64,000 bases of DNA. Origin: Coleofasciculus chthonoplastes F2-STO-03 (GTDB taxonomy: Bacteria; Cyanobacteriota; Cyanobacteriia; Cyanobacteriales; Coleofasciculaceae). Of this stretch, positions 29,563 through 51,128 are shown in pieces. The stretch covers positions 14,823 through 78,822 of the forward strand of contig JAVJWO010000041.1 in NCBI GenBank assembly GCA_040222015.1. Direction: 5' to 3'. The first letter of the stretch is position 1. Every line of letters starts with the position of its first letter. A model generated the notes under the pieces. That model saw nothing but the letters and a program-made list of their open reading frames with translations. It did no database searches and had not been told where the DNA came from. A program made the position numbers and the translations under genes.

Positions 29563-30792
29563 ATGCTCAAACCTGAACTTCTCGCCCCAGCGAAGAATCT
29601 GGAACGGTTAAAAGTCGCCATTGCTTATGGTGCAGATGCGGTATATCTAGGGGGACAAAACTATGGATTGCGGGCGCGTGCGGATAATTTTACGGATTCT
29701 GAGTTAGCCCACGGTGTAGCATTTGCCCATCACCATGATGCCAAAATTTACGTCACGCTGAACGCCTTTCTCCACGATGCAGACTTTCAGGGACTCCCCG
29801 ACTATTGCCAGTTTCTGGAATCTATTGGCGTTGATGGGGTAATTGTTTCCGATTTAGGCGTTATCCGAGTGGTTAAAACGAGTTCAAATCTCCATATTCA
29901 CCTTTCCACTCAAGCCTCTTGTCTCAATTCCTACAGCGCCCGTTTGTGGAAAGACATGGGAGTCAAGCGCTTAATTGTTGGTCGAGAACTCAGTATTACT
30001 GAAGCGGGTTTAATTGGAGCAAAATCCGGTATTGACGTGGAGATGTTTACCCACGGTGCAATGTGTATGGCGTATTCGGGTCATTGCACAATCTCTAATT
30101 TTACCGCAGGTCGCGACTCTAATCGGGGCGGATGTATCCAATCCTGTCGATTACCCTATCACTTACAACGTCAGGAGCAGCAAGCTGATGATTTAGTCAG
30201 CTTCATGTCGTCCAGAGATTTGTGGGGAATTTATCAGATTAGCGAGTTTTTTAGCCATAATATTTGCTCGCTAAAAATAGAAGGACGGATGAAATCATCG
30301 TTCTATGTCGCCCTAACCTGTAAGGTTTATCGCCAATTAATTGATGCTTATGCTGCTGGGAGATTAGATGAACAGTTACTCAGCCAAGCCGCAGCCGAAC
30401 TGCAATCAATTCCTAACCGAGACTATTTTTCCGGTTCCTTAGAAACACCAGCCGATAAAGATTCAGTCTTTGGACAGTTATCGGGAATTAATACAGGAAC
30501 CCACTCTTATTTAGGCATGGTTATGGATACAACGCCGCAAGAGATTATTTTACGGTTACTTGAACCGTTAGCCGTCGGGGATGAAATTGAAATTATCCCG
30601 TTTCAAGACAAACCGATACGCTGGCAAGTTAATCAGCTTTTTTCGATGACAGGTGAACGCTTAGAGTCGATGCGAAAGGACAGTCTTGTGCGCTTACCCA
30701 AACCGGATGACTCCGTGCGATCGCACAATATCACCAAATTAAATGTCGTTCGATTCACCCATTCCCCTGTAACCGTTGCTAGTAAAGTCTGA
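29563..30792 (+). CDS. trhP: Peptidase U32 family protein, TrhP/YrrO-like prephenate-dependent tRNA U34 hydroxylase
   Basis: KPELLAPA, YGADAVYLGG, HLSTQA, RELS, HGAMCMAYSGHC...NRGGCIQSCR (4-Cys Fe-S motif), SLKIEGRMKS; context with cmoA/cmoB. Confidence 0.8.
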   Translation: MLKPELLAPAKNLERLKVAIAYGADAVYLGGQNYGLRARADNFTDSELAHGVAFAHHHDAKIYVTLNAFLHDADFQGLPDYCQFLESIGVDGVIVSDLGVIRVVKTSSNLHIHLSTQASCLNSYSARLWKDMGVKRLIVGRELSITEAGLIGAKSGIDVEMFTHGAMCMAYSGHCTISNFTAGRDSNRGGCIQSCRLPYHLQRQEQQADDLVSFMSSRDLWGIYQISEFFSHNICSLKIEGRMKSSFYVALTCKVYRQLIDAYAAGRLDEQLLSQAAAELQSIPNRDYFSGSLETPADKDSVFGQLSGINTGTHSYLGMVMDTTPQEIILRLLEPLAVGDEIEIIPFQDKPIRWQVNQLFSMTGERLESMRKDSLVRLPKPDDSVRSHNITKLNVVRFTHSPVTVASKV

Positions 30793-30824
30793 ACTAGGAA
30801 TTCCCTGTTCCCTGAGAAATAACA

Positions 30825-32033
30825 ATGCAATTTAATACCTTCATTTCATCAATTAAAAATTTAGAACGCTGTGTTAATGCGCCCCATCTACATGAAGTAT
30901 TATTAGAACCGATAGTATTAGCGCGACAGGGACAATTATCAAAAGCGAAGGTACATGATTTAGCCAAAAAAGCGTGGAAAAAACAACTACGCCCGGTACT
31001 CGTCTGGGATGTGTTAATGCCAGAACGGGTAATGAGAACCCTTTGTGATCAGCTAAAGGATTGGCAACTCAGTCTTTTTGGTGCAATTCGTGTGTGTGAT
31101 CCGGGCGCGGCTTATTGGCTGAAAACCCATTTTCCTCAGATACCTATCCAGTTAATTGTTGAGACAGGAAATCACAATCTGGAGGCGTTGCAAGGATGGT
31201 GCGAGATTTTTTCGGATTCCTTGGAACGGTTAGTCTTATCGATTGAACTACCGGAAGAAAAGCTAATTGAATATTGCCAAACCTTACCCGTTCCCTGTGA
31301 ATTGCTAGGTGTGGGACCCATTCTGTTATTTTACTCGCCGCGATCGCTCTTGATAAACCCGTTGCTGGAACGCCAGAATATAGAAGCAACAGAAGACATC
31401 GATTCGCTATACCGATTCAACCCCGACTCCCCTCTCTACCTAGAAGCGACGGCGGCTTTTGCGGATAACCCTAATCGCCATTTTCCGACATTAGAAACTG
31501 CTCATGGAACGTTTATGTTTTTAGACAAATATCAGTTTATCCTGGATCAGTTAGATGGCTTACGTGAGGCGGGTTTACATACCGTGCGATTGGACTTACG
31601 ACATCTGATTCAGGAGGACAATGTTGCTATTGATATTGATGAAATTTGTCGCCAGGTGTTAGAAAATCCGGCAAAAATACGGGAAACTTGGTTCCGAGAA
31701 ACACGCGCTCCTTTTTTCAAAGCGAATCGTACTACCGCCTTGTTTACCCGGATGAAATCAAAACTATCTGAATACCGGAATGATGCCTGTCTAGCGGAAG
31801 TTATGGCTGGAGAAAGTGGCAAATATGTGGTTTTTTACACCTGGCGTTCCTTCGAGATTTCCCAGATTCAAGGTATGGTTTTACCCACGGGTGAAGAAAT
31901 TGTTCCCCAAGACGTTATTTTTCGTACCATAAACGGCAAACCTGTTGATACCTTTGAACCGGAACAAATTTTAGTGACTAATTGGATCAAAAAAGCTGTT
32001 CCGGGTTCTCTGCTGCTGGGTAAAATGTCTTGA
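30825..32033 (+). CDS. Divergent peptidase U32 family partner subunit (YrrN-like, lacking the Cys cluster)
   Basis: DPGA, RLVLSIEL, GPILLFYSPRSLL and ETAHGTFMF resemble U32 motifs; co-oriented 32 bp after the first U32 gene. Confidence 0.7.
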   Translation: MQFNTFISSIKNLERCVNAPHLHEVLLEPIVLARQGQLSKAKVHDLAKKAWKKQLRPVLVWDVLMPERVMRTLCDQLKDWQLSLFGAIRVCDPGAAYWLKTHFPQIPIQLIVETGNHNLEALQGWCEIFSDSLERLVLSIELPEEKLIEYCQTLPVPCELLGVGPILLFYSPRSLLINPLLERQNIEATEDIDSLYRFNPDSPLYLEATAAFADNPNRHFPTLETAHGTFMFLDKYQFILDQLDGLREAGLHTVRLDLRHLIQEDNVAIDIDEICRQVLENPAKIRETWFRETRAPFFKANRTTALFTRMKSKLSEYRNDACLAEVMAGESGKYVVFYTWRSFEISQIQGMVLPTGEEIVPQDVIFRTINGKPVDTFEPEQILVTNWIKKAVPGSLLLGKMS

Positions 32034-32046
32034 TTAATTCAGACAT

Positions 32047-32154
32047 GTAGGGGCGGGTTTGACAGATAACAGTTTGCCACCAACCGATAACTTAACTAAA
32101 CCCGCCCTTATAGAGTGCGATACCTTGATAAGGGCGCAAGCCTTGCGCCCCTAC
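32047..32154. repeat. REPIN-like element plus REP hairpin
   Basis: GTAGGGGCGGGTTT...AAACCCGCCC (32047-32107) and GGGCGCAAGCCTTGCGCCCCTAC. Confidence 0.75.
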
Positions 32155-32224
32155 GTTAGGGTGTACTTCATCTGGGTCATATTTACTAAAAAGATACTAA
32201 TTTCTACTAAATTAGTAGGTTAAG

Positions 32225-32965
32225 ATGTCAGCTATTCATAATCAACGACTGAGAATGTCTAATCCATACTTTCGCTTCAAGCAATTCACCGTCTTTCACG
32301 ATCGCTGTGCGATGAAGGTGGGAACGGATGGTACACTGTTAGGAGTATGGACGGATATCACAGGCGTGCAAAGCATTCTGGATATTGGCACAGGAACGGG
32401 TTTGGTTGCACTCATGTTGGCACAGCGATCGCAGGCGCACATTGATGCGGTGGAAATTGACGCAGAGGCTGGCATTCAGGCGCGGGAGAATGTGGAGAAA
32501 TCACCGTGGCGCGATCGCATTCAGGTGTATCAGGGTTCTGTGCAAGATTATGCCACGACTTGCTCAAAGCGGTACGATCTGATTGTGTCTAATCCTCCCT
32601 TTTTTGACAATGCCAGTAAAGCGTCACAAAAGGCGAGAACCGTAGCACGACATAGTGATTCTTTGAAGCAATTGGATCTATTACAAGTGGCGGAACAGCT
32701 TTTGGGTGAGAATGGCAGGCTAGCTGTAATTTACCCCACTGAGTCAGCCCAAATATTCCAAGAAAAAGCCGAATTATTTAGTTTATTTTTCCACAGGAAA
32801 CTCTCTGTTAAACCGACCTTAGCCAGTCAAACTAAACGAATTATACTGGAACTGGGGAAACATCAGTTATCCTCTCAGGAAAACATCCTTACGATAGAAG
32901 CCACCAGACGGGTTTATACCCCTGAATTTATTAGCTTGATTAAAGAATTTTACCTGAAATATTAA
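32225..32965 (+). CDS. trmN6: tRNA1(Val) (adenine(37)-N6)-methyltransferase (YfiC/TrmN6-like)
   Basis: FRFKQFTVFHDRCAMKVGTDGTLLGVW, LDIGTGTG, SNPPFF, ARH, YTPEF..L.KEFYLK are YfiC-family signatures; start 32225 or 32255. Confidence 0.9.
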   Translation: MSAIHNQRLRMSNPYFRFKQFTVFHDRCAMKVGTDGTLLGVWTDITGVQSILDIGTGTGLVALMLAQRSQAHIDAVEIDAEAGIQARENVEKSPWRDRIQVYQGSVQDYATTCSKRYDLIVSNPPFFDNASKASQKARTVARHSDSLKQLDLLQVAEQLLGENGRLAVIYPTESAQIFQEKAELFSLFFHRKLSVKPTLASQTKRIILELGKHQLSSQENILTIEATRRVYTPEFISLIKEFYLKY

Positions 32966-33171
32966 TTTAAATATCTATATTTGGGATTATAAGTTAATTT
33001 GTATAACCATAGACATAAGCCTGAATGCTCTGGAAGTTAACTTCGTAGGTTGGGTTGAGGAACGAAACCCAACTAGAACATACGAGCTGAAACCATAGTG
33101 AAGCTCGTTGCCAAGATTGAGTCTAACTTTAGGCTGATGAGAATCCTGCAAATACTAATCAAACTAGAGAT

Positions 33172-33471
33172 ATGTGGAATAATCAAAATCCCCCAGAATT
33201 CGAGCATGACGGTGTTCCCCATCCCCACCATCCCCAACGAGATGGGGCAGATGAAAAATCTCCAGACACTGAACAGGAAAGCCTTGACCCTAATCTATCG
33301 CCAGAGCATATAAAAGCGACAACAAAATCGTTGAAGCGTATCTATATTACTCTCCTGATTATGGGTTTACTTTTAGGAGGAGTGGTATCTGTAGGGGTTG
33401 TCATCGCCCTCGATCGCATGGGATTGACAGATGCCCCAGCAGATGTGGAAGAGACTGAAATGCCGTATTAA
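33172..33471 (+). CDS. Hypothetical single-TM membrane protein
   Basis: 99 aa; acidic/Pro-rich N-terminus and one hydrophobic helix. Confidence 0.65.
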   Translation: MWNNQNPPEFEHDGVPHPHHPQRDGADEKSPDTEQESLDPNLSPEHIKATTKSLKRIYITLLIMGLLLGGVVSVGVVIALDRMGLTDAPADVEETEMPY

Positions 33472-33617
33472 GCCGAATGGCGCTGAAAAGCGTGCATTTT
33501 TGGGTCGCCGAAACCCTTGATATACCGTAGGGTGGGCATTGCCCACCAGCCCAAATTTCAGTACTATTCCTATTAAGCCTGCCGCGCCTCGAATTGGATA
33601 GTTGTGCGATCGGTTAG

Positions 33618-33966
33618 TGGTGAGGAGGGCGGGTTTTGTTGTTCCGTTTTCGGTGAGGAGGGCGGGTTTTGTTGTTCCGTTTTCGGTGAGGAGCTGAATT
33701 TAGTCCCTAAACCCGCCCCTACGATTGTCCCTAAACCCGCCCCTACGATTGTCCCTAAACCCGCCCCTACGATTGTCCCTAAACCCGCCCCTACAATTGT
33801 TACTAAACCCGCCCCTACAATTGTTACTAAACCCGCCCCTACAATTGTTACTAAACCCGCCCCTACAATTGTTACTAAACCCGCCCCTACAATTGTTGCT
33901 AAATCTGCCCCTACAATTGTTGCTAAATCTGCCCCTACAATTGTTGCTAAATCTGCCCCTACAATT
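33618..33966. repeat. Tandemly amplified REPIN arms: ~2.4 x 33-bp units followed by 11 x 24-bp units
   Basis: GGTGAGGAGGGCGGGTTTTGTTGTTCCGTTTTC x2, then GTCCCTAAACCCGCCCCTAC.ATT x4, GTTACTAAACCCGCCCCTACAATT x4, GTTGCTAAATCTGCCCCTACAATT x3. Confidence 0.92.
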
Positions 33967-33971
33967 GACTG

Positions 33972-34745
33972 ATGAATTACGACAAACTCGATCCAGAACT
34001 TGAGCATACAAAACTTTATCTGAGTCCTGAAAAAGATGAACTCTTTGAAAAAGGAGTGTGGCCCAAGCCGTTTGTCTTTAACCAGGATGTTGTCAATGTT
34101 TTCGATAATATGATATCCCGTTCCGTTCCGCTGTACCAAGAGGTGCTAACCTGTGCCGCTCATTGGGCGAGAGAGTATTATCAACCGGGAACACGGATTA
34201 TTGATGTGGGCTGTTCTACGGGAACATTTCTGGAATTAGTGGGGCGTTTCTTAAAGCAAAAGGCTACACTCGTGGGGATTGATAATTCTCAACCCATGCT
34301 AGAGAAAGCCAAGCAAAAATTACTTACAATCAAACAGATTCATCAAATTGAATTCATTTGTGACAAGGCAGAAAACTCTTCCTTTGAGAATAGTAGCGTT
34401 GTTGTGATTAACTACACCCTACAATTTTTGCCGCTACAGGTGCGTCAACTCTTGCTCCGAACTATCTACGAGGGATTGGTTCCAGGTGGCTTACTCTTCG
34501 TAAGCGAAAAAGTAAAGTCACCCTATCCTCAATTTCAAGAGACAATCACCCGACACTACGAAGCCTTTAAAGCTCATAATGGTTATGCCCGTACTGAAAT
34601 CGAACGGAAAAAGGAGGCGCTAGAGAATGTTTTAGTGCCGTTAACGGAAGCCCAGCAAGTGCAAATGTTGTATGATAGTGGTTTTAATAGAGTGGATTCA
34701 CTAATTAAATTACATAACTTTATTTCCTGGGTGGCTCTTAAGTAA
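33972..34745 (+). CDS. cmoA: Carboxy-S-adenosyl-L-methionine synthase
   Basis: VFDNMISRSVPLY, DVGCSTG, GIDNSQPM, NYTLQFL, SEK, FKAHNGY...LENVL, NFISWVALK align with E. coli CmoA. Confidence 0.9.
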   Translation: MNYDKLDPELEHTKLYLSPEKDELFEKGVWPKPFVFNQDVVNVFDNMISRSVPLYQEVLTCAAHWAREYYQPGTRIIDVGCSTGTFLELVGRFLKQKATLVGIDNSQPMLEKAKQKLLTIKQIHQIEFICDKAENSSFENSSVVVINYTLQFLPLQVRQLLLRTIYEGLVPGGLLFVSEKVKSPYPQFQETITRHYEAFKAHNGYARTEIERKKEALENVLVPLTEAQQVQMLYDSGFNRVDSLIKLHNFISWVALK

Positions 34746-34772
34746 GAGGTGATTTATACGCCCATAAACTAA

Positions 34773-35054: not shown

Positions 35055-38000
35055 ATGGCTCAACTTGAAGACCTCACTCGTGGTGCAACTGTTAAAGGTA
35101 TCTTACCCAATCACCATGTCACTGTCATTGACGCCAAGTGGCACGGCAGTGATGTGATTGAATTAACCTATAAAGATGCTAGTGGACAACCTCATACCGA
35201 ACTCCTCTTTCGAGACCGAGAGCCGACATTAGATATCGTCACGGAAGGGCAACCTTGGAGTTTTGACGGTGATGGCGCATTACTTCGACTCGTCTCAGAA
35301 GCCCATCGCATTCGGCTAGCTCATCTATTTGACCCACTGCTGGCTGTCCATACCTCCCTCGTCGAACCCCTCCCTCACCAGATCACAGCCGTCTATGGGG
35401 AGATGCTCACCCGTCAGCCGCTGCGGTTCCTCTTAGCGGATGATCCGGGGGCGGGGAAAACGATTATGGCAGGGTTATTTATCCGGGAGTTGCTGATTCG
35501 GGGGGATTTGCAACGCTGTCTGATTGTCTGTCCGGGGAGTCTGGCGGTACAGTGGCAAGATGAACTGTTTCACAAGTTTCATCTGCCCTTTGAGATTTTA
35601 ACGAATGACCGCATCGAAGCGGCTCGCACGGGGAATGCTTTTGCCGAAATGTCGTTGGTTATCGTCCGGCTGGATAAGCTGAGCCGGAATGAGGATTTGC
35701 AAGCTAAGCTTGGTCAAACGGATTGGGATTTGGTGGTGGTGGATGAGGCGCATAAGATGTCAGCCTCGTTTTTTGGGGGAGAAATTAAGGAAACCAAGCG
35801 CTACAAGTTGGGTAAGCTGCTTTCAACGCTGACTCGTCACTTCCTGCTGATGACAGCGACTCCCCATAATGGTAAGGAAGAGGACTTTCAGCTTTTCTTG
35901 ATGCTACTGGATGGCGATCGCTTTGAAGGGCGTTTCCGGGATGGGGTGCATGCTTGTGATACCTCGGACATGATTCGTCGCTTGGTTAAGGAAGATTTAC
36001 TCAAGTTTGATGGCAAGCCTCTGTTTCCAGAACGTCTGGCACATACCGCCCAGTATTTGCTGTCTGATTTGGAAGCGGTTCTCTATAAGCAGGTGACGGA
36101 TTATGTGCGAGAGGAATTCAATCGGGCTGAAGCCCTTGCCAATAATGGACGCAAAGGCACCGTTGGCTTTGCCTTGACTATATTGCAACGTCGCCTTGCA
36201 TCCTCCCCCGAAGCAATTTATCAGTCCCTGCAACGGCGGCGGGAGCGGTTACAGAAACGTCTGCGAGACGAGAAAATGCGATCGCGCGGATTGAGTTTGG
36301 AATTGGAATTTGGACTGACTATCGATTTGGAAGACTGGGACGATGATTTTGAGGAGTCTTCTACTGAGGAGCGGGAAACGACGGAGGAAGAGGTCATTGA
36401 TCTGGCGACAGCCGCTCGCACTATTACTGAACTGCAAGCCGAAATCGATCACTTGGGCGAACTGGAAAATCTAGCGCTGCGGGTGAGGCGCAGTGGCAAG
36501 GATCGTAAATGGGAGGAGCTATCGAAACTCCTGCAAGATCAGGCAGAAATGTTTGATGCTGGAGGTTATCGGCGTAAGCTGGTGATTTTTACTGAGCATC
36601 GAGATACGTTAAACTATTTGACGGAGCGCATCGGCACCCTGTTAGGTCGTCCTGAAGCCATTGTTACAATTCATGGCGGTATGAGTCGAGACTCTCGTAA
36701 ACAGGCAGAAGAAGCCTTTAAGCAAGATCCAACCGTCGAAGTCTTGATTGCTACAGATGCAGCAGGTGAAGGGATTAACCTGCAACGGGCGCATTTGATG
36801 GTGAACTATGACCTGCCTTGGAATCCCAATCGTCTGGAGCAGCGCTTTGGGCGGATTCACCGGATTGGGCAAACGGAAGTCTGTCACCTCTGGAATCTGG
36901 TGGCTGGGGAAACCCGCGAGGGGGATGTGTATCTGGCGCTGTTGCAGAAACTGGAAAAGGAGCAAAACGCGCTCGGCGGTAAGGTTTTCGATGTCTTGGG
37001 GAAAGCGATCGCGGGGAAGGAATTGCGGGAACTGCTGATCGAAGCAATTCGTTATGGCGATCGCGAGGATATCAAAGCGAAGCTTAACCAGGTGGTTGCC
37101 GATCGCCTCGATCAAGGGCGGCTACGGGAATTGCTAGAAGAACGTGCCTTGGCGCGAGACTCTATGGATGCGACGAAGGTGCAGCAAATCCGAGAGGACA
37201 TGGAACGGGCAGAGGCGCGGAAACTTCAGCCCCATTTTATTGCTTCCTTTTTCTTGGCAGCTTTTCAGCGTTTGGGGGGTACGATTCGCCAACGGGAACC
37301 CAAGCGCTATGAGATTACCCATGTTCCGGCGGTGATTCGTAATCGCGATCGACAGATTAGCATAGGTGATCCGATTCTGCGGCGCTATGAGCGGGTTTGC
37401 TTTGAGAAGGAACTGATTAGCGTTCCTGGAAAACCCCTGGCGGATTTCATCTGTCCGGGTCATCCCCTCCTGGATGCTACCCTCGATCTGACCTTAGAAC
37501 GCCACCGTGATTTGCTGCGACAAGGAGCCATTTTAGTGGATCAAAATGATCCGGGTGAAGCGGTACGTGCTTTGGTTTACTTGGAGCATTCCATCCAAGA
37601 TGCTCGCACAGAACGGGAAGGTCGGCGTCGGGTTGTTTCTCGCCGGATGCAGTATGTAGAAATTGACACCACCGGACAGGCTAAGGGGGCAGGTTATGCT
37701 CCCTATCTCGACTATCGACCCCTAGAGGAAGCCGAAAAACCCCTCGTGGAATCGGTTCTGGGTTCTGTAGGGCTTCGAGATGAGATTGAAAGTCAAGCCA
37801 CCAGCTATGCCATTGCCAACTTGGTTACTCCCCATCTCCAGGAGGTGGGGGAACGTAAACAGGAGTTAATTGAAAAGACGGTTCGGGCGGTTAAGGATCG
37901 GCTAACTAAGGAAATTAACTATTGGGATCAACGGGCGGCAGATTTGCGGTTACAGGAACAAGCAGGTAAGCCCAATGCCAAGCTCAACTCGACAAAAGCC

Positions 38001-38624
38001 CAGCAACGGGCAGATGAGTTAGCCGCACGGCTGCAGAAGCGTCTGTCTGAATTGGAACAGGAACGCAAGCTGTCCCCGATGCCGCCTGTGGTAGTTGGTG
38101 GGGCGCTGGTTGTACCTATTGGACTGTTGCAACGGCTGCAAGGCAAACGGGATTCGACTGCCACAATGTTTGCCAGAGAAACGAAGCGGGTAGAACAGTT
38201 GGCAATGGAAGCAGTGATGGCAGAGGAACGAGCATTCGGTTATCAGCCTCAGGATGTTAGTGCCAAAAAGTGTGGCTATGACATCGAATCAGTTGTACCT
38301 GGAACCGGGCGGCTGCGGTTTATAGAAGTCAAGGGCAGAATAGAAGGAGCGGATACTGTCACGGTCACCAAAAATGAGATCCTCACGGCTCTGAATCAGC
38401 CAGATCATTATATTTTGGCGTTGGTGCAGGTTCCCCCTAATCGAAAATTCCCGGAAGGGGATGCGTTTGTGGTTCGGGAAGCGAGGGGAGAGTATAAGCT
38501 ACCAGGAAACGGCTGTGTGGTGCGTTATGTGAAGGAACCGTTTCAACGGGAGCCCGATTTTGGTGCGAGTAGCGTGAACTACCACTGGCAGGAGTTATGG
38601 GAACGGGGGGAGGAACCGAGATGA
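35055..38624 (+). CDS. SNF2/SF2 helicase with C-terminal DUF3883 (PD-(D/E)XK) nuclease
   Basis: LADDPGAGKT, DEAH, TATP, NPNRLEQRFGRIHRIGQ; C-terminal GYDIES...FIEVKG...VTKNE. Confidence 0.92.
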   Translation: MAQLEDLTRGATVKGILPNHHVTVIDAKWHGSDVIELTYKDASGQPHTELLFRDREPTLDIVTEGQPWSFDGDGALLRLVSEAHRIRLAHLFDPLLAVHTSLVEPLPHQITAVYGEMLTRQPLRFLLADDPGAGKTIMAGLFIRELLIRGDLQRCLIVCPGSLAVQWQDELFHKFHLPFEILTNDRIEAARTGNAFAEMSLVIVRLDKLSRNEDLQAKLGQTDWDLVVVDEAHKMSASFFGGEIKETKRYKLGKLLSTLTRHFLLMTATPHNGKEEDFQLFLMLLDGDRFEGRFRDGVHACDTSDMIRRLVKEDLLKFDGKPLFPERLAHTAQYLLSDLEAVLYKQVTDYVREEFNRAEALANNGRKGTVGFALTILQRRLASSPEAIYQSLQRRRERLQKRLRDEKMRSRGLSLELEFGLTIDLEDWDDDFEESSTEERETTEEEVIDLATAARTITELQAEIDHLGELENLALRVRRSGKDRKWEELSKLLQDQAEMFDAGGYRRKLVIFTEHRDTLNYLTERIGTLLGRPEAIVTIHGGMSRDSRKQAEEAFKQDPTVEVLIATDAAGEGINLQRAHLMVNYDLPWNPNRLEQRFGRIHRIGQTEVCHLWNLVAGETREGDVYLALLQKLEKEQNALGGKVFDVLGKAIAGKELRELLIEAIRYGDREDIKAKLNQVVADRLDQGRLRELLEERALARDSMDATKVQQIREDMERAEARKLQPHFIASFFLAAFQRLGGTIRQREPKRYEITHVPAVIRNRDRQISIGDPILRRYERVCFEKELISVPGKPLADFICPGHPLLDATLDLTLERHRDLLRQGAILVDQNDPGEAVRALVYLEHSIQDARTEREGRRRVVSRRMQYVEIDTTGQAKGAGYAPYLDYRPLEEAEKPLVESVLGSVGLRDEIESQATSYAIANLVTPHLQEVGERKQELIEKTVRAVKDRLTKEINYWDQRAADLRLQEQAGKPNAKLNSTKAQQRADELAARLQKRLSELEQERKLSPMPPVVVGGALVVPIGLLQRLQGKRDSTATMFARETKRVEQLAMEAVMAEERAFGYQPQDVSAKKCGYDIESVVPGTGRLRFIEVKGRIEGADTVTVTKNEILTALNQPDHYILALVQVPPNRKFPEGDAFVVREARGEYKLPGNGCVVRYVKEPFQREPDFGASSVNYHWQELWERGEEPR

Positions 38625-39226
38625 GTTATCGAGAATTCACCTGGTCCAAGGCGAAGCAAGATTTTGGCTTAAAGACGATTGAGGGCGATCGCTTTTTTCC
38701 GGTTCTCCCGGAAGTGCAACCCAGTTCCCTCTTGCAGGAAATGCTTCAGCGTAATATTCCTTGGGCGATCGCGGTTGGTAATGAAAAAGCTCGTTCTGAA
38801 GCGATTATTAATCCGATTCTGTTGGAGGTTCAGCAAGTCTTAGAGCGGAAAATCAGCGTTTTTTCAGGAGAAGAGTTCAATGTAGACCCCAAAGCTGGAC
38901 TCAATGGCATCTGTGATTTTTTAATCAGTCAATCACCCGAGCAAATTGTGGTGGAAGCCCCGGTTTTGGTCGTGGTGGAAGCGAAAAAAGACGACTTGAA
39001 GCGAGGGATGGGACAGTGTTTGGCTGAGATGGTGGCAGCGCAGCGCTTTAACCGGGCGAATCAACAAGCAATTCCCACGATTTATGGCAGTGTCACGACA
39101 GGAACGGCTTGGCGGTTTCTTAAGTTGGAGGACAGTATAGTAACAGTGGATTTGACGGATTATCCGGTTCCCCCGGTTGAACAGGTACTCAGTATTTTAG
39201 TCTGGATAGCCAATAACACCCGATGA
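38621..39226 (+). CDS. Small restriction-endonuclease-fold (PD-(D/E)XK, HsdR-N-like) protein
   Basis: EKARSE, GICDFL, VEAKK, QCLAEM, YGSVTTGTAWRF; ATGA overlaps with both neighbours (38621-38624, 39223-39226). Confidence 0.75.
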   Translation: MSYREFTWSKAKQDFGLKTIEGDRFFPVLPEVQPSSLLQEMLQRNIPWAIAVGNEKARSEAIINPILLEVQQVLERKISVFSGEEFNVDPKAGLNGICDFLISQSPEQIVVEAPVLVVVEAKKDDLKRGMGQCLAEMVAAQRFNRANQQAIPTIYGSVTTGTAWRFLKLEDSIVTVDLTDYPVPPVEQVLSILVWIANNTR

Positions 39227-42117
39227 GAAAGAAGCTGATTGAAGTTGCCCTGCCTCTAGAAGCCATTAATGCAGAATCGGCTCGTGAAAAGTCGATTCGC
39301 CATGGGCATCCCTCAACGCTGCATCTGTGGTGGGCGAGACGACCATTGGCAGCTTGTCGAGCCGTGTTATGGGCGTCTTTGGTCGATGATCCGTCCAGTT
39401 GGGCGGATAGGTTTCCCACAGAAGAAGACCAGAAGCGGGAACGGCAGCGACTCTTTGATATTTTAGGGCGAATTACTATCGAAACCGATAAAAAGGGGAA
39501 TCAAAAGCAAGTGGTGCGCGGTTTGGTGTCCTGGGATGATATCAAAGAACCGGCAATCATTGACGAGGCACAAAAGGAAATTGCCCGATGTTTGGCGTGG
39601 GAACGGGGGGAAGAACCGCCAACGAAGCCAGAGGCGGTACGGGATTATATTGCTAAATATGCGCCGCCTGTCTATGACCCTTTTGCTGGGGGTGGCTCGA
39701 TTCCTTTGGAGGCGCAGCGCTTGGGATTAGAAGCTCATGCGAGTGATTTGAATCCGGTGGCGGTGTTGATTAATAAGGCATTAATTGAGATTCCGCCTAA
39801 GTTTAAAGATTTATCGCCTATTAATCCAGAAAATCGCCAGAAAAAGGGGATGAATGTTTGGAAAGGGGCGCAAGGATTGGCGGCGGATGTGCGCTTTTAT
39901 GGGCAATGGATGCGGGATGAGGCGTTTAAGCGGATTGGGAATTTGTACCCGAAGGTGGAGTTACCAAAGGAGTATGGGGGAGGAAAAGCAACAGTAATCG
40001 CATGGTTGTGGGCAAGAACGGTGAAGTGTCCGAACCCGGCTTGTGGCTGTCAAATGCCTTTGGTGCGGAGTTTTCAGCTTTCGACGAAGAAGGGGAAAGA
40101 GGCTTGGGTTGAACCGCAAATTGACCGAGAGCAGACGCCGCCAGCGATTCGGTTTGAGGTGAAAACTGGGAAGGGAGAAGTTCCAGAAGGAACGGTGAGC
40201 CGCAAAGGTGCAGGGTGTATTGCTTGTGAAACGCCTGTGCCGTTTGACCATATTCGCAGTGAGGGCAAGGCGGGGCGGATGAGTCAGCAGTTGATGGCGA
40301 TTGTAGCTGAAGGGCAAAGTGGGCGGGTTTATCTTGCTCCTACTGAGGAACATGAAAAAATTGCCAATTCTGCTCAACCCGAATGGAAACCAGATACCGA
40401 TTTACCAGAACAAGCATTAGGTTTTCGAGTCCAGCTTTACGGTATGGTTAAACACGCCAATCTCTTCACCGATCGCCAACTTGTTGCTCTAACCACCTTC
40501 AGCGATTTAGTCAGTGAGGCAAGGGAAAAGGCGACGCAAGATGCTATCTCTGCGGGTCTGTCTGATGATGATGTGCCGCTGAATGATGGCGGGACTGGGG
40601 CAAGAGCGTATGGAGATGCGATCGCAACTTATTTAGGATTGGGATTAAGTCGATTAAGTGATATTTGTAATGCTCTATGCAGATGGGAAATTTCAAAAAC
40701 TCAAGTTCGTAATTTATTTGGTCGTCAAGCCATTCCAATGGTTTGGGATTTTGCTGAAAATAACTTATTTGCTAATGCAGCAGGTGATTTTGCAGTTAGT
40801 TTGGGAAGCTTATTAAAAGTTGTTGAACGAATCCAACCGGGAATTCTAGGGTCAGCAAAACAAAAGGATGCAATGACATCACTATCAACTACTCAGCGTT
40901 TCATTATTTCATCTGATCCTCCTTACTACGACAATATTGGTTACGCTGACCTCTCCGATTTCTTCTACGTCTGGCTCCGTCGCTCGCTTCAATCCATTTA
41001 CTCCGATCTTTTCAGTACGCTTCTTGTTCCAAAATCTCAAGAACTCGTCGCTACGCCCTACCGCTTTGACGGTGATAAACAAAAAGCTCAAACATTTTTT
41101 GAAGAGGGATTAGGCAAAGCCTTTAACCTAATGCATGAAGTTTCTGACACAGCTTATCCAATAACGATTTATTATGCTTTTAAACAAGCAGAGGCAGAAC
41201 AAAAAGGAAAAGCTGATGCATCAGTTGCTTCTACAGGTTGGGAAACTATGCTGGAAGGCTTGATGAAAGCTGATTTCAGTATTGGCGGAACCTGGCCCAT
41301 GCGAAGTGAACTAAGTAACCGCATGGTTGCTGATGATACCAACGCCCTCGCCTCCTCTATCGTCCTCGTCTGCCGCCCCCGCCCCACCGACGCACCCAAA
41401 ACCACCCGCCGCCAATTCCTCACCGAACTCAAACGCCAACTCCCCAAAGCCCTGAAAACCCTGCAACAAGGCAACATCGCCCCCGTAGACCTCGCCCAAG
41501 CCAGCATCGGACCCGGTATGGCAGTCTTCTCTCAATACGCCGCCGTTCTCGAAAACGACGGTTCCCCCATGCGGGTTCGCACCGCCCTACAACTGATCAA
41601 CCAAATCCTCGACGAATATCTCACCGAACAAGAAGGCGCATTTGACAGCGATACCCGCTGGGCGCTCACCTGGTTCGAGCAGTATCAATTTAACCCAGGA
41701 CAGTATGGTGATGCTGAAACCCTTTCCAAAGCCAAAAATACCAGTGTTAGTGGCATGGTTGATGCGGGAATCCTAGAAGCAAAGGGCGGCAAAGTTCGCC
41801 TGCTCAAACGTGAGGAGTTGAAGTCAGACTGGAATCCCAATAGCGATAGCCGGATGCCTGATTGGGAAGTCACCCAATACCTCATCCACGAACTCGACCA
41901 AAAAGGCGAGATGGGGGCGGCTGAAATGTTGGCGAAATTAGGCGAAAGAGGCGAAATTGCCAGGGATTTAGCCTATCGACTCTATAGCTTGTGCGATAGA
42001 AAAGGTTGGGCAGCCGAGGGCATTGCCTACAACAGCCTGGTTATCTCTTGGCCCGAAATTACTCGCTTGGCAAGTGAGTTTCAATCTCGACCAATTCAAG
42101 GCGACTTAGGATTTTAG
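39223..42117 (+). CDS. DUF1156-domain amino-DNA methyltransferase with Zn ribbon
   Basis: KLIEVALPL...LHLWWARRPLAACRA (DUF1156), DPFAGGGSIP (motif I), CPNPAC/CIAC, DPPYY (motif IV). Confidence 0.92.
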   Translation: MRKKLIEVALPLEAINAESAREKSIRHGHPSTLHLWWARRPLAACRAVLWASLVDDPSSWADRFPTEEDQKRERQRLFDILGRITIETDKKGNQKQVVRGLVSWDDIKEPAIIDEAQKEIARCLAWERGEEPPTKPEAVRDYIAKYAPPVYDPFAGGGSIPLEAQRLGLEAHASDLNPVAVLINKALIEIPPKFKDLSPINPENRQKKGMNVWKGAQGLAADVRFYGQWMRDEAFKRIGNLYPKVELPKEYGGGKATVIAWLWARTVKCPNPACGCQMPLVRSFQLSTKKGKEAWVEPQIDREQTPPAIRFEVKTGKGEVPEGTVSRKGAGCIACETPVPFDHIRSEGKAGRMSQQLMAIVAEGQSGRVYLAPTEEHEKIANSAQPEWKPDTDLPEQALGFRVQLYGMVKHANLFTDRQLVALTTFSDLVSEAREKATQDAISAGLSDDDVPLNDGGTGARAYGDAIATYLGLGLSRLSDICNALCRWEISKTQVRNLFGRQAIPMVWDFAENNLFANAAGDFAVSLGSLLKVVERIQPGILGSAKQKDAMTSLSTTQRFIISSDPPYYDNIGYADLSDFFYVWLRRSLQSIYSDLFSTLLVPKSQELVATPYRFDGDKQKAQTFFEEGLGKAFNLMHEVSDTAYPITIYYAFKQAEAEQKGKADASVASTGWETMLEGLMKADFSIGGTWPMRSELSNRMVADDTNALASSIVLVCRPRPTDAPKTTRRQFLTELKRQLPKALKTLQQGNIAPVDLAQASIGPGMAVFSQYAAVLENDGSPMRVRTALQLINQILDEYLTEQEGAFDSDTRWALTWFEQYQFNPGQYGDAETLSKAKNTSVSGMVDAGILEAKGGKVRLLKREELKSDWNPNSDSRMPDWEVTQYLIHELDQKGEMGAAEMLAKLGERGEIARDLAYRLYSLCDRKGWAAEGIAYNSLVISWPEITRLASEFQSRPIQGDLGF

Positions 42118-42241
42118 GTTTGAATTTGGGAATTCTAGAGGTGAAAATTAATGAAAGTACAAATCTTTTTCCCACTCTTCGAGAAGGACAAAGCCCTACA
42201 TCCCCCAGAGGGGAGCCGGAGTGAGAGTTCAGGACTTGAAT

Positions 42242-42340
42242 CCCCCTCACCCCCAGCCCCTCTCCCACCAGAGGAGAGGGGAGCCGGAGTTTCTAGTTCC
42301 CCTTCTCCCTCGATGGGAGAAGGGGTTAGGGGAAGAGGGT
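42242..42340. repeat. C-rich/G-rich inverted-repeat element
   Basis: CCCCCTCACCCCCAGCCCCTCTCCC...GAGAGGGG...CCCCTTCTCCC...GGGAGAAGGGGTTAGGGGAAGAGGG. Confidence 0.75.
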
Positions 42341-42552
42341 GAACAGCCTAAAGGCTTACCAGTATTGGTTTTTGCGTAATGAACTTAAAATTTATACCCT
42401 GCAATCCGGTCAATATCAGCAAGTTTCTACAAGTCCCACATTGCCAATCCTCAATTAGTCGCCGAGGTACTTGAACAAAGTATCACCATTGGCAGAAGTC
42501 CCGCCTTACGAGCCTTTCGTCAGACCATTCAAACCCAAAAATCCCAACTCTA
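42340..42552 (+). pseudogene. Frameshifted C-terminal remnant of a Uma2-family endonuclease
   Basis: AYQYWFLRNELKIYTLQSGQYQQVSTSPT, then in a shifted frame PQLVAEVLEQSITIGRSPALRAFRQTIQ*; resembles cyanobacterial Uma2 C-termini. Confidence 0.6.
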
Positions 42553-42576
42553 GCTGAAACCCCAAAACATAATAAC

Positions 42577-45500
42577 ATGGCAATTAGTAACCACGAACGA
42601 GTCGGTAGAGCCTTAAACTTACTGCGAGATGGACTCTATCCCTTCATTGAGCGAGAGATGAAAGCCAACTTTGGCGAGCGGTGGTTGAGTGCTGCCTCTG
42701 CTTGTCTTCCCGACCATTACGTGGCGCGTCGTGAGGTGAAAGATGTCCTCAAGGAAGATGTTTCTGCCTTACTGATGGTGATGTGGGAACAGTGGAATAA
42801 CGTCTTCCGCAATACCCTGGGACGCTCCGAACGCAGCATCGTCAGCGAACTACGGGATACCCGTAACGACTGGGCGCATACTAGCACCTTCTCCACCGAT
42901 GACGCTTACCGCGCCCTCGACAGCATGGCTCGCCTCCTCTGTGCCATCTCAGCCACTGAAGCCGATCAAGTCGAAAAGCAGAAACAAGAACTCTTGCGGG
43001 TTCGCTTTGAAGGTCAAGCCCGTCGGGAAACTCGCCGTGCGGCTGTGGCTCCCACTGTCGGACAGCCGATGTCAGGATTAAAACCCTGGCGCGAAATTAC
43101 CACCCCTCACCCCGATGTCGCCTCAGGGCGCTACCAACAAGCTGAATTTGCCGCTGACCTGTGGCAAGTTTACCTGGATGAAGGCTCCGATGAATACCGT
43201 GACCCCACAGAATTCTTCCGGCGTACCTACCTGACCGAGGGACTCAAGCAACTCCTGAGCGGGGCATTACTGCGCCTGAGTGGAAAAGGCGGCGATCCGG
43301 TGATTGAACTGCAAACCAACTTTGGTGGCGGTAAAACCCACGCCATGCTAGCACTGTATCATTTGTGCAATGCCTTAGCGATCGCGGATCTCCCTGGCAT
43401 GGAACCCATCTTCCAAGAGACTAGCTTGACCAAACCCCCCCAAAACGTCAACGTCGCCGTCCTTGTGGGGAATAAACTCCAGCCCAGCGGTATCGCCCCC
43501 TACAAACCCGAACACAAGAGCCAAAACCGTCCTTTGATCAAAACCCTCTGGGGTGAATTAGCGTGGCAACTCGGCGGGTTAAAGGGCTATGAAATCGTTC
43601 GTAATGCCGATGAAACCTCCACCAATCCGGGTGATGCCCTCAAGGTACTCTTCAACCGCTTTTCCCCCTGTTTGATTCTGATCGATGAATGGGTTGCCTA
43701 TGCTCGACAATTACACGACCGCAGCGATATTGCTGGTGGCAGTTTCGACACCCAATTCACCTTTGCTCAAACCCTGAGCGAGTCGGCTAAAAACGCCAAG
43801 CAGACTTTACTCGTTGTCAGTATTCCATCCTCTGATATTGAAATCGGAGGAGAGAGAGGCAAAGAAGCCCTTGATCGCCTCAAGAATGCGATCGGTCGCG
43901 TCGAGTCCCCTTGGCGACCCGCCAGCGCTGAAGAAAGCTTTGAGATCGTGCGACGGCGGCTGTTTCAGATCGCGGCTGACCCCAACCTCTTTGTCCAACG
44001 GGATGCTGTGATCCGGGCTTTCTCAGAAATGTACCGCACTCAGAGACAGGAGTTTCCCGCTGAATGCAAAGAAGGCGACTATGAGCGACGGATGCGAGAC
44101 GCCTATCCGATTCATCCCGAACTCTTTGATCGCCTCTACTCCGACTGGTCTAGTCTGGATAAATTCCAGCGTACCCGTGGCGTGCTGCGCCTGATGGCAA
44201 AAGTGATTCACTCCCTCTGGGAACGCAACGACCAAAGCCTAATGATTATGCCAGCCCACGTCCCCATGGACGACTCCCAGGTGCAGTCCGAACTAACCCG
44301 CTACCTGGACGATAACTGGATTCCCGTTATTGATAAAGACGTAGACGGCCCGAACTCCCTACCCCTGGCGCTAGACCGACAGAACCCCAATCTAGGGCGT
44401 TACTCTGCCTGTCGCCGAGTGACTCGCTCGATTTACATGGGTTCTGCCCCCACTCTACGAGCAGCCAATCGCGGACTGGAAGACCGCAGAATCAAACTCG
44501 CTTGCGTCCAGCCTGGAGAAACCGCCGCCACCTTTGGCGATGCCCTGCGCCGTCTCACCGACCAAGCCACCTACCTCTACATCGACGGTAACCGCTACTG
44601 GGTTTCAACCCAACCCAATGTCAACCGCACCGCCCAAGAACGAGCTAATCAATACCAGAGCGATCGTTACAAGGTTTGGGAAGAAATCATCAAACGACTA
44701 AAAAATGATAAGTCGCGCAATGAGTTCAGTGCCGTCCATATTGCCCCGGAATCAACCGCAGATATTCCCGATGACCCCAGTTTGGGAGTGCGTCTTGTCG
44801 TGCTTGCTCCCCAGCATCCCTACAGCCGTCTCAGCGACGATACCTCCGCTCGCCAATGGATTGAAGATGCCCTAAACCACAAAGGAAGCAGTCCTCGCTA
44901 CTACAAAAATACCCTGCTTTTCCTGGCTCCAGACAAAGCCAAAATTGAGAACCTAGAGCGGAATGTCGCTCAATACCTCGCCTGGGAGTCGATTCTCGCT
45001 GACGACAAGAAGAAAACCCTGAATCTCGATAACTTTCAGCGGAGTCAGGCAGAAACGAAAAGGGATGGAACGAACAAAGATGTTGATAATATTCTCAACG
45101 ATACCTATCAATGGCTCTTAGTGCCGATGCAACCGGATGCCCAAGGCGGTATCGAATGGAAGGAAACGCGGCTGCAAGGTCAAGACTCACCGATCGCGCG
45201 AGCAAGCAAAAAAGCTGTCCATGAAGGCGATCTCCTTGACAATTACGCCGCGACAAACCTACGCCTAGAAGCCCTAGATAAGTTCCTCTGGCGAGAAACC
45301 AACCATATCGACTTGAAGCGCCTCTGGGAGTACCTCACCCAATACCTTTACCTGCCGCGATTGAAAGACCAAAATGTCCTCCTCGAAGCCATCCGCAATG
45401 GCGTTACATCAACGATTTGGGCGGATAACTTCGCCTATGCTGAGGGATTTGACGAAGAAACGGGAAAATATCTCGGTTTGCTAGCGGGAACGGGAATAAC

Positions 45501-45939
45501 GCCTAGAATTAGTCCGCAAAGCTTGCTCGTCAAACCAGACATTGCCCAACGACAGTTCGACGCCGAACAAGCTCCGACATCTACAACCCCTAGTGGAAAA
45601 GGAGTGACAACAACGGGGACAGAATCGGGTGATAGCTCGCCCTCTGGTGATGAAGGAACGATTGGTAGCTCCGGCGATGGATCGGGAGGGAGCCAAACTC
45701 CTGTACTCCGGCGGTTCTATGGTAACGTTGAAATTGACGCCATGCGGGTGAATCGAGACGCTCCCGCGATCGCGAACGAGGTAATCCAGCACCTAACCGC
45801 TTTGCACGGTGCAAAAGTCAAACTCACCCTCGAAATTGAAGCAGAAATTCCTGAAGGGGTGCCTGATGATGTCGCCCGTACCGTCATGGAGAACTGTCGG
45901 ACACTTAAGTTCAACAGCCAATCTTTTGAGCAAGAGTAA
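42577..45939 (+). CDS. Swt1-like HEPN domain fused to a DUF499 AAA+ ATPase
   Basis: ELRDTRNDWAH (RxxxxH), PHPDV..G....AEFAADL, TNFGGGKTH (Walker A), LILIDEWV (Walker B), YPIHPELF, FQRTRGVLRL. Confidence 0.9.
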   Translation: MAISNHERVGRALNLLRDGLYPFIEREMKANFGERWLSAASACLPDHYVARREVKDVLKEDVSALLMVMWEQWNNVFRNTLGRSERSIVSELRDTRNDWAHTSTFSTDDAYRALDSMARLLCAISATEADQVEKQKQELLRVRFEGQARRETRRAAVAPTVGQPMSGLKPWREITTPHPDVASGRYQQAEFAADLWQVYLDEGSDEYRDPTEFFRRTYLTEGLKQLLSGALLRLSGKGGDPVIELQTNFGGGKTHAMLALYHLCNALAIADLPGMEPIFQETSLTKPPQNVNVAVLVGNKLQPSGIAPYKPEHKSQNRPLIKTLWGELAWQLGGLKGYEIVRNADETSTNPGDALKVLFNRFSPCLILIDEWVAYARQLHDRSDIAGGSFDTQFTFAQTLSESAKNAKQTLLVVSIPSSDIEIGGERGKEALDRLKNAIGRVESPWRPASAEESFEIVRRRLFQIAADPNLFVQRDAVIRAFSEMYRTQRQEFPAECKEGDYERRMRDAYPIHPELFDRLYSDWSSLDKFQRTRGVLRLMAKVIHSLWERNDQSLMIMPAHVPMDDSQVQSELTRYLDDNWIPVIDKDVDGPNSLPLALDRQNPNLGRYSACRRVTRSIYMGSAPTLRAANRGLEDRRIKLACVQPGETAATFGDALRRLTDQATYLYIDGNRYWVSTQPNVNRTAQERANQYQSDRYKVWEEIIKRLKNDKSRNEFSAVHIAPESTADIPDDPSLGVRLVVLAPQHPYSRLSDDTSARQWIEDALNHKGSSPRYYKNTLLFLAPDKAKIENLERNVAQYLAWESILADDKKKTLNLDNFQRSQAETKRDGTNKDVDNILNDTYQWLLVPMQPDAQGGIEWKETRLQGQDSPIARASKKAVHEGDLLDNYAATNLRLEALDKFLWRETNHIDLKRLWEYLTQYLYLPRLKDQNVLLEAIRNGVTSTIWADNFAYAEGFDEETGKYLGLLAGTGITPRISPQSLLVKPDIAQRQFDAEQAPTSTTPSGKGVTTTGTESGDSSPSGDEGTIGSSGDGSGGSQTPVLRRFYGNVEIDAMRVNRDAPAIANEVIQHLTALHGAKVKLTLEIEAEIPEGVPDDVARTVMENCRTLKFNSQSFEQE

Positions 45940-45952
45940 CGGATGACCACTC

Positions 45953-46942
45953 ATGACAAATCCTGATCAAACGATTGGTTATATACCCCCTGATTATCTA
46001 GAGTTCTACCCCGAAACGTTAGCACGAGAGGAAATTTTATCAGTACGTCAAGAGCGACAATCTAAATTATTTACCCCTCAAATGAGTCAGTACCGAGAAG
46101 CGGTGCAGGCGGTTCAGGACATCCAAAGTGATTGGTATGACTTCTCTGATGCTGTCGTCAAAGTGGGTCGTGCTGAGGAACTCACCGCCGCACAAAAACA
46201 GCGATTTTATCACTCGTTGCAAGCCTTTTGCCCTTGGAAAAAAGGACCCTTTGAACTGTTTGGGATTACCATTGATGCAGAGTGGCGTTCTGACTGGAAA
46301 TGGGCGCGAATTTTGCCCCATATCCATTCGCTGAAAAATCGCCGGGTGGCTGATATTGGCTGTCACAATGGTTATTTTATGTTTCGCATGGCGGATCAGG
46401 AACCGGACTGTGTAATTGGGTTTGAGCCAGTTCCTAAGCACTTTTGGAACTTTCAGCTTATCCAAAATATTGTTCAGCAACCGATGCTGACGTTTGAGTT
46501 ATTGGGGGTTGAGCATATCGATTTTTATCCGAATTTCTTTGATACAATTTTTTGTCTAGGAATTCTTTACCATCATCGAGATCCGATTAATTTATTGAGC
46601 AAACTGCGACAAGCGCTAGCACCAAAAGGTGAAATTATTATTGATTGTCAAGGAATTCCTGGGGAACTTCCTGTGGCGTTAACTCCCCGTAAGCGCTATG
46701 CTCAAGCACGCGGAATTTGGTTTTTACCCACCCAATCTTGTTTAGAGAATTGGCTAGTACGGGCTGGCTTTAGTCAGATTCACTGTTTCTTTGCTGAACC
46801 TTTGTCCGTGCAGGAACAACGCCGCACGCCTTGGGCAAATATCGATAGTTTACGCGAGTTTCTGAATCCTGATGATTTATCGGTAACGATAGAAGGGTAT
46901 CCCGCACCCTGGCGCTATTATGTAATTGCTCATAAAAGTTAA
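45953..46942 (+). CDS. cmoB: tRNA U34 carboxymethyltransferase
   Basis: PWKKGPF, IDAEWRSDWKW, DIGCHNGY, GILYH, RYAQ.R..WFLP, TIEGYPAPWR align with CmoB. Confidence 0.92.
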   Translation: MTNPDQTIGYIPPDYLEFYPETLAREEILSVRQERQSKLFTPQMSQYREAVQAVQDIQSDWYDFSDAVVKVGRAEELTAAQKQRFYHSLQAFCPWKKGPFELFGITIDAEWRSDWKWARILPHIHSLKNRRVADIGCHNGYFMFRMADQEPDCVIGFEPVPKHFWNFQLIQNIVQQPMLTFELLGVEHIDFYPNFFDTIFCLGILYHHRDPINLLSKLRQALAPKGEIIIDCQGIPGELPVALTPRKRYAQARGIWFLPTQSCLENWLVRAGFSQIHCFFAEPLSVQEQRRTPWANIDSLREFLNPDDLSVTIEGYPAPWRYYVIAHKS

Positions 46943-51091: not shown

Positions 51092-51128
51092 ATTTTCGTC
51101 CTTAATTATTGAAGTTGCTTCTAGTTTG

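Follow-up and report, generated by a model that had tools for sequence, protein, structure and literature searches.

The E. coli pathway to 5-carboxymethoxyuridine at tRNA position 34 (cmo5U34) uses TrhP or TrhO together with CmoA and CmoB (PMC6599085, PMC4482062), and the B. subtilis trmR-trhP2-trhP1 operon (yrrMNO) encodes two U32-family proteins in tandem. Parts of these pathways have already been recorded in cyanobacteria: Sakai 2019 reports trhP1 and trhP2 in some of them and cmoA near trhO in others (PMC6599085), and CmoB was noted in some cyanobacteria by Kim 2015 (PMC4482062). Supplementary Data 1 of Sakai 2019, which classes proteins on a neighbour-joining tree, lists TrhP1/TrhP2 pairs in Coleofasciculus chthonoplastes (B4VZ99/B4VZ98), Trichodesmium (Q10W89/Q10W92), Arthrospira, Lyngbya, Limnoraphis and Halobacteriovorax, and its Data 2 credits T. 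erythraeum with TrhO 0, TrhP1 1, TrhP2 1, CmoA 1, CmoB 1 and TrmR 1, the only row of the 584-organism table that is positive for TrhP1, TrhP2, CmoA and CmoB and negative for TrhO (PMC6599085). These entries are table rows that describe no operon, origin or trhO exclusion and report no assay, and Trichodesmium, yfiC and N6-methyladenosine at position 37 (m6A37) go unmentioned in the main text. Two further papers (PMC12783734, PMC8522699) provide general background. Here we describe a 64,000-nucleotide stretch of the genome (G000) of Coleofasciculus chthonoplastes F2-STO-03 (GenBank assembly GCA_040222015.1, contig JAVJWO010000041.1, positions 14,823 to 78,822; hereafter the window), which carries at positions 29563..46942 five genes, referred to as U32a, U32b, trmN, cmoA and cmoB, that are predicted to form a pathway of this kind.

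The five open reading frames (ORFs) are intact and co-oriented, occupy ~5.2 kb of the 17.4-kb span and are each single-copy in G000, where U32a and U32b are the only two U32 genes (Table 1). Their best models and residues match the identities claimed in the original prediction, and the closest named relatives are Coleofasciculus metagenome-assembled genomes (MAGs), at 87-95%. The reading that we favour, with a probability of about 0.7, is that the genes form an old, imported operon for O2-independent synthesis of cmo5U34 and m6A37, which replaces a TrhO/TrmR route to 5-methoxyuridine (mo5U). Each chemical step in this scheme is proposed by homology. U32a, as the catalytic Fe-S subunit, and U32b, as its partner, would hydroxylate U34 of UNN family-box tRNAs with prephenate and without O2; CmoA would convert S-adenosylmethionine (SAM) and prephenate to carboxy-SAM; CmoB would convert 5-hydroxyuridine (ho5U34) to cmo5U34; and the TrmN6 homologue would add m6A37 to tRNA-Val(UAC). 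In carriers the module is the only detected route to ho5U34 and would take the place of the usual cyanobacterial TrhO/TrmR route, and in this genome cmoA and cmoB are separated by an Hma defence system.

The best NCBIfam model for U32a is TrhP, at 262 bits and under its cut-off of 534 (NF011996), and the UbiU and UbiV models also stay below their family cut-offs (150 of 440 and 24 of 275 bits, respectively). The Pfam scan of U32a returned U32 and U32_C (PF16325, E 7e-5, under the cut-off), nothing further and thus no DUF3656, the domain that marks RlhA (PMC5727448). Residues E162, H166, C170, C177, C193 and C197 of E. coli TrhP map to E160, H164, C168, C175, C191 and C195 of U32a, which has the Glu/His pair and the CX6CX15CX3C cysteine spacing of TrhP/TrhP1; Cys169 and Cys176 of RlhA, which are homologous to cysteines of U32a, are essential (PMC5727448). 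The best reference matches are from Fusobacterium, Bacillales (YrrO) and clostridial U32 proteins, with YrrO at 279 bits versus 193 for E. coli TrhP, and a search of solved structures by sequence with U32a gave no match. In a maximum-likelihood (ML) tree rooted on UbiU, U32a falls within the TrhP/YrrO group at 96/96, in a clade of its own (100/99) that stands apart from the YrrO clade.

U32b is a weak match to PF01136 alone (48 bits), has none of the four cysteines and resembles YrrN in an S-x-R-S-L motif; it adjoins or co-occurs with U32a throughout, its descent from a duplicate of U32a is not rejected (p 0.42), and the cluster representative of Q10W92 is 62% identical to it. The modelled structure of U32b (predicted local distance difference test, pLDDT, 81) comprises a barrel and a beta domain and matches generic TIM barrels, the U32 protein Mk0906 ranking 12th among the matches. 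A model of the U32a:U32b complex scored 0.90 versus 0.01 for the best control, with a partner pLDDT of at least 84 and contact agreement of at least 91%; the mark used to judge such models is reached by 116/157 solved complexes and 2/215 mismatched pairs, and applies roughly to the alignments used here. The model supports a U32a:U32b heterodimer with U32b as a candidate partner subunit, and by analogy with TrhP the pair probably forms ho5U34 in a prephenate-dependent manner without O2. These gene identities, together with the published TrhP1/TrhP2 class of the orthologues, bear out the earlier proposal of a hybrid between a TrhP1/TrhP2-type pair and CmoAB.

The remaining three proteins are 35-40% identical to E. 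coli CmoA, CmoB and YfiC (CmoA 35%, CmoB 36%). CmoA scores above the TIGR00740 cut-off (203 versus 193 bits) and below that of PRK15451 (140 versus 285), and keeps the SAM-binding residues Y39, D62, G64, S66, D89, N90, N132, F137 and E164, with D117 replaced by Lys. CmoB scores above both of its models (362 versus 209 and 358 versus 275 bits), and its K97, Y206 and R321 correspond to K91, Y200 and R315 of the E. coli enzyme, in which K91A abolishes carboxymethyl transfer (PMC4482062). For the methylase the best model is TrmN, matched over its full length at 268 bits and under the cut-off of 350 (NF047853), with the next family at 62 bits; it has 94 identities to E. coli YfiC and carries the NPPY/F motif as NPPF, and its probable start lies a few codons downstream of the annotated one.

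Conservation of the set was assessed in a chosen collection of 71 genomes. It comprised 39 of 40 relatives, every cmoB bearer of a phylum-wide sample, the 14 genomes from which loci L029-L043 other than L032 come, and four further genomes. Taking an E value below 1e-100 as the threshold for a U32a orthologue, 24 other cyanobacterial genomes are carriers, and trmN occurs in all 24 of them, cmoA in 22 and cmoB in 21. A close trmN orthologue is present in none of the 44 non-carriers, and a distant one in 8/9 genomes of family f42. Among 21 U32b loci, the order U32a-U32b-trmN-cmoA-cmoB is shared by Coleofasciculus, Microseira and a Deltaproteobacteria MAG (L043); the Microseira locus occupies another chromosomal site, beside what its ORFs suggest are dnaA- and dnaN-like genes and with other genes interleaved, and in Floridaenema and Phormidium cmoAB are inverted and upstream. 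The five genes stand alone in ~5 kb in G325 (L064) and G348 (L216), and of 12 further loci from family f18, five have all five genes in order within 5-7 kb and seven have U32b alone or with U32a. In G187 and G287 the genes are dispersed over several loci and all retained. The linkage of the five genes is not chance, since compact operons with this gene order are found both in other filamentous cyanobacteria and, beyond the phylum, in a small delta-related one. The set is rare, as predicted: of 301 genomes sampled evenly across the phylum, four have U32b (G000, G187, G287 and G325) and 16 have cmoB, namely these four, three of family f2 and nine of f42, the latter two groups having a different type. 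Carriers are patchily spread, accounting for 10/25 genomes in f1, 35/91 in f18 and 4/301 phylum-wide. Three loci show local irregularities: the trmN orthologue of G003 is in two pieces through a frameshift or an assembly error (L078, 12491-13197), in G287 the trmN-cmoA interval holds pieces of a second copy resembling trmN (L224, 7921-8267), and in an Anaerolineae MAG, where a trmN orthologue was not found, a gene for an apparently secreted 2511-aa protein separates U32b from cmoA (L041, 11249-18784).

The carriers are further set apart by what they lack. With PF17773 as the marker of trhO, no trhO was found in the 99.99% complete G000 assembly, in which tblastn was also empty, nor in any of the 24 other cyanobacterial carriers (0/25 in all), whereas PF17773 is present in 36/44 non-carriers, including all 12 cmoB bearers of f2 (3) and f42 (9). 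This absence, overlooked by the original prediction, is the strongest point in its favour. In a sample of 91 f18 genomes, U32b occurs in 35, trhO in 38 and both in none, and cmoB was found in 5/5 tested U32b bearers and 0/5 tested genomes with neither gene. The only U32-pair carrier with trhO is the Bdellovibrionales MAG G343, whose cmoA adjoins trhO and belongs to another clade. A trmR-like O-methyltransferase gene is present in 5/5 tested non-carriers and adjoins trhO in one of them (G030), and mo5U is present in Synechocystis RNA (PMC12860351), as would be expected if TrhO and TrmR formed the usual cyanobacterial route. Besides the trhO-cmoA pair of G343 (L226), trhO lies next to both cmoA and cmoB in G215 (L070, 5421-9212), and these arrangements would represent a second, O2-dependent kind of cmo5U cluster that was separately acquired.

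Several observations weigh against the proposed operon function. The bit scores of U32a and the TrmN6 homologue lie below curated cut-offs; U32b joins YrrN in one tree (support 91, unstarred, on a long branch) and not in another; and the complex model was run without a homodimer control, while paralogues can pass through likeness. Neither cmoA nor cmoB was found in G004 and G026, and cmoB was not found in G006; these three assemblies consist of 510-1440 contigs, and cmoA of G006 lies on a contig of 1.6 kb. Among f18 genomes, 18/91 have neither route, and when the family is counted by genus, because related genomes are not independent, the table of 0 genera with both, 7 with U32b, 3 with trhO and 4 with neither gives p=0.19. 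The genera g70, g161, g155 and g157 of this family contribute 15 genomes without U32b and trhO, of which the 5 tested are also without cmoB; these genera possibly make no 5-oxyuridine derivative (xo5U34) at all, or use a third hydroxylase.

A further such point lies in CmoA, where Arg199 of the E. coli enzyme, the sole residue that binds the carboxylate (PMC3663124; PMC4482062), is replaced by Lys (Lys214) in the window and in all 14 members of the clade, and another in the trmR-like gene, which is kept in 4/5 other carriers tested (G002, G287, G334 and G341), so that mo5U may be made there too. Both would fit a Lys-type CmoA that produces hardly any carboxy-SAM, none at all, or some other derivative of SAM, with a final product that is ho5U, mo5U (made by the trmR-like gene or a side activity of CmoB) or another derivative of U34. 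We regard this as unlikely, as the Lys and the whole motif around it are invariant in the clade, a basic residue is retained, the cmoB-bearing genomes of f2 and f42 also have a CmoA without Arg at that column, and CmoB keeps the equivalent of K91, which disfavours SAM (PMC4482062). The trmR-like gene was moreover not found in G325 or in G000, whose only strong PF01596 match is 40% identical. That match sits in what we take to be a mycosporine cluster. By eye, a phage CmoA homologue encoded beside a DNA methylase also seems to have no Arg at the column of residue 199; this homologue differs from the phage enzyme that has been assayed and was given no weight here.

The approximately unbiased (AU) test for U32a also counts against the favoured reading: it selects neither YrrO (p-AU 0.27) nor TrhP (0.075), and it does not reject a union of U32a with RlhA (0.21). 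The pair might act elsewhere, on C2501 of 23S rRNA as RlhA does or on quinones as UbiUV does, and merely travel with cmoAB, as could be suggested by the union with RlhA, by the failure to find RlhA in G000, which has only the two U32 genes, and by the phylum of G343, where none of 17 fetched loci with the pair has cmoAB or trmN close by. This is very unlikely in our judgement. U32a lacks the hallmark domain of RlhA (PMC5727448), its union with UbiU is rejected (p-AU 0.032), many carriers have a separate, long RlhA-type U32 protein, and with neither trhO nor the pair acting on tRNA, CmoB would have no substrate. The earlier expectation that the U32 proteins would group with neither UbiUV nor RlhA stands with respect to UbiU and the missing DUF3656, and a sister relation to RlhA is not formally rejected by the tree tests.

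The window proteins are 60% (U32a), 48% (U32b), 44% (trmN), 66% (cmoA) and 62% (cmoB) identical to those of L043, and CmoB is 40-41% identical to the CmoB of f2 cyanobacteria. A close cmoA is present in 6/6 genomes of the phylum of G344, and the five of these other than G344 hold pair-type U32 genes, two of them cut or partial; trhO was not found in the genomes searched in that phylum. ML trees unite the cyanobacterial copies of cmoB (99/99), cmoA (98/89), trmN (100/99) and U32a (96/94) in one clade apiece, nested among sequences from the G344 phylum with one Anaerolineae MAG as a near neighbour. The AU test rejects a grouping of every oxygenic-cyanobacterial cmoB in a single clade (p-AU 1.7e-109), and the f2 cmoB is a separate acquisition. 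Outside cyanobacteria the U32b family has a far broader distribution, with 336 clusters at 50% identity (E below 1e-30) and members in 21/124 genomes of the phylum of G343 and 1/301 of a sample of the class Anaerolineae, and the cyanobacterial U32b rows nest within it in a quick, midpoint-rooted tree. Because the cyanobacterial copies nest among non-cyanobacterial ones, apart from other cyanobacterial cmoAB, the simplest reading is that the module was imported into cyanobacteria, probably from a delta-related lineage. The predicted horizontal origin thereby gains support, and the alternative of genes universal and vertically inherited in the phylum fits neither their rarity nor the nested trees.

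The import is old. Module identities to other carriers (57-83%) resemble the medians of neighbouring genes (59-71%) in a comparison that covers five of seven groups and leaves out G024 and the non-carrier groups, and the G+C content at third codon positions (GC3) of the five genes lies at the 20-56th percentile of the genome, which led us to reject a recent foreign island for them; atypical values are confined to hmaA (95.5) and hmaC (99.1). One gain followed by losses and several transfers among cyanobacteria are indistinguishable here. The single clades, native-like identities and GC3 would suit one entry in a filamentous ancestor followed by neutral, reciprocal loss against trhO, with dark anoxia irrelevant, a history that is compatible with the chemistry proposed above and to which we assign even odds. 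The named carriers include Trichodesmium and Limnospira, which are planktonic, and the genus-level table is likewise in its favour. Yet carriers are patchy across families and hold the module at differing chromosomal sites, no genome has both routes although a dual ancestor should now and then leave some, and trhO was found in 22/32 bearers of TrhP1/2 by Sakai 2019 (PMC6599085). A selective account is also conceivable, in which several filamentous lineages of these oxygen producers dropped the O2-using hydroxylase for an imported operon with a distinct U32 heterodimer (an Fe-S enzyme and a pseudo-enzyme partner) and a Lys-type CmoA, owing to a need for accurate translation during dark anoxia or when internal O2 is very low, the two routes being functionally exclusive and the Lys-type CmoA perhaps altering the yield or nature of the U34 product. 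This anoxia explanation, like the argument of the original prediction from nightly anoxia in mats, is a hypothesis, and we would sooner doubt than hold the account as a whole.

The tRNA complement of G000 does not support expanded decoding on account of missing GNN tRNAs. All six GNN isoacceptors are present (Val GAC, Ala GGC, Pro GGG, Thr GGT, Ser GGA and Leu GAG; ARAGORN), and missing GNN tRNAs, which the original prediction named as a point to check, were rejected as the reason for the module. Ile GAT is missing from the set, probably through unassembled tRNAs of the rRNA operons. A Val(CAC) tRNA was not found in the G000 scan, so that GUG, which makes up 30% of Val codons, relies on the UAC tRNA, and tRNA-Val(UAC) carries A37. 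One G000 contig also holds an array of 15 tRNAs (48310-57717), several of them atypical, which includes the only Ala(UGC) gene found.

The original prediction overlooked an 11.2-kb insert that splits cmoA from cmoB in the window. It is an Hma system, a known defence system (PMC11232893), identified with PADLOC at 1710 (HmaA), 182 (PD-DExK), 1253 (HmaB) and 1102 bits (HmaC); as in the published system, full-length HmaA, HmaB and HmaC are encoded in one operon with an extra gene between hmaA and hmaB, and apart from its position inside a tRNA-modification operon it is ordinary. HmaC was not found in five congeners. Four congeners have cmoA, the PD-DExK gene alone and cmoB, with flanks of 15-25 bases around the small gene that resemble the hmaA end and the hmaB start, and in G008 cmoA directly adjoins cmoB. 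Either the congeners once had Hma and lost it, or the small gene came out of a cassette of this kind. It is not established that Hma inserted recently, and no convincing terminal repeats were found around the insert. A second, divergent HmaA/HmaB/HmaC-like set (23-34% identity) lies elsewhere in G000 (contig C134, ~37600-51900). The clustering first proposed thus holds in that the order recurs as a compact operon elsewhere, with the qualification of this insert, and the idea of a self-contained cassette was abandoned, given the interruption, the dispersal in G187 and G287 and the native codon use: the module is an old, partly dispersed operon.

Table 1. Features of the tRNA-modification module and its surroundings, in window coordinates.
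Feature	Position	Strand	Remarks
U32a, 409 aa, predicted TrhP1-type U32 hydroxylase with U32_C domain	29563..30792	+	Profile and residue matches
U32b, 402 aa, U32 barrel that is degenerate and has none of the four cysteines, with C-terminal beta domain	30825..32033	+	
TrmN6/YfiC-like, predicted tRNA m6A37 methyltransferase, 246 aa, NPPF motif	32225..32965	+	
99-aa ORF, no known family	33172..33471	+	Outside the conserved module
Tandem repeats, 33-bp (2.3 copies) and 24-bp (10.9 copies), upstream of cmoA	33619..33967		
CmoA-type, predicted carboxy-SAM synthase, 257 aa	33972..34745	+	Lys214 at the position of E. coli Arg199
HmaA SNF2 helicase-nuclease, inserted defence gene outside the tRNA module	35055..38624	+	
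PD-DExK family gene	38597..39226	+	Multi-copy in genome; in four congeners the sole gene separating cmoA from cmoB
HmaB DUF1156 adenine methylase	39223..42117	+	
HmaC HEPN(Swt1)-DUF499 ATPase	42577..45939	+	Stop 13 bases ahead of cmoB
CmoB, predicted tRNA U34 carboxymethyltransferase, 329 aa	45953..46942	+	

The 99-aa ORF occurs at the trmN-cmoA position only in Coleofasciculus loci. The repeats that follow it stop 4 bases ahead of cmoA, and their 16-nt core is found 357 times in the genome; in the congeners, related repeats lie in the opposite orientation between the PD-DExK gene and cmoB. A scan for promoters and terminators remained at chance level (11 vs 10.3 and 6 vs 5.6, respectively). 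Upstream of the module, at 25472-26170 of the window, a gene preceding that of a multi-receiver response regulator encodes a protein that we presume from its C-terminal motif to be PEP-CTERM-like.

The enzyme types described here are known, and novelty of the gene complement is not supported in view of Supplementary Data 1 and 2 of Sakai 2019 and the CmoB noted by Kim 2015. The linked set and the either-or pattern look undescribed: at the level of titles and abstract openings, with thin coverage of subscription papers, the literature yielded no description of the five-gene operon, its origin or the trhO exclusion. New are the cross-phylum five-gene operon with its connection to trmN and its independent origin, the either-or relation to trhO, a CmoA of the Lys type and the heterodimer model. 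As the expected chemistry is known, the gain is in evolution and enzymology and not in a new pathway. The pattern suggests a natural swap of wobble-modification routes in ecologically large cyanobacteria, among them mat formers, Trichodesmium and Limnospira, with cultured representatives on both sides, and it makes testable the TrhP1/TrhP2-type heterodimer, the need for Arg199 in carboxy-SAM synthesis and a functional coupling of m6A37 to cmo5U34, the last being suggested because the five genes stay together even when scattered.

In comparison with the E. coli pathway, the locus shares the CmoA and CmoB families, the U32 cysteine motif and, as expected from these, prephenate-linked chemistry (PMC6599085, PMC4482062). 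It differs in having two U32 proteins, no trhO found, a Lys in place of Arg199 and, in agreement with the original prediction, one operon with trmN where E. coli has three separate loci. With yrrMNO of B. subtilis it has in common a cysteine-complete and a degenerate U32 protein encoded in tandem; here, however, their order is reversed, the partner has ~400 aa and a C-terminal domain as opposed to ~310 aa, the genes are linked to cmoAB and trmN and not to trmR, and U32a forms a clade apart from YrrO. The usual cyanobacterial TrhO and TrmR-like route to mo5U and the f2 combination of TrhO with gamma-like CmoAB would serve the same tRNA position and purpose, whereas their first step is O2-dependent and the f2 cmoB is a separate acquisition.

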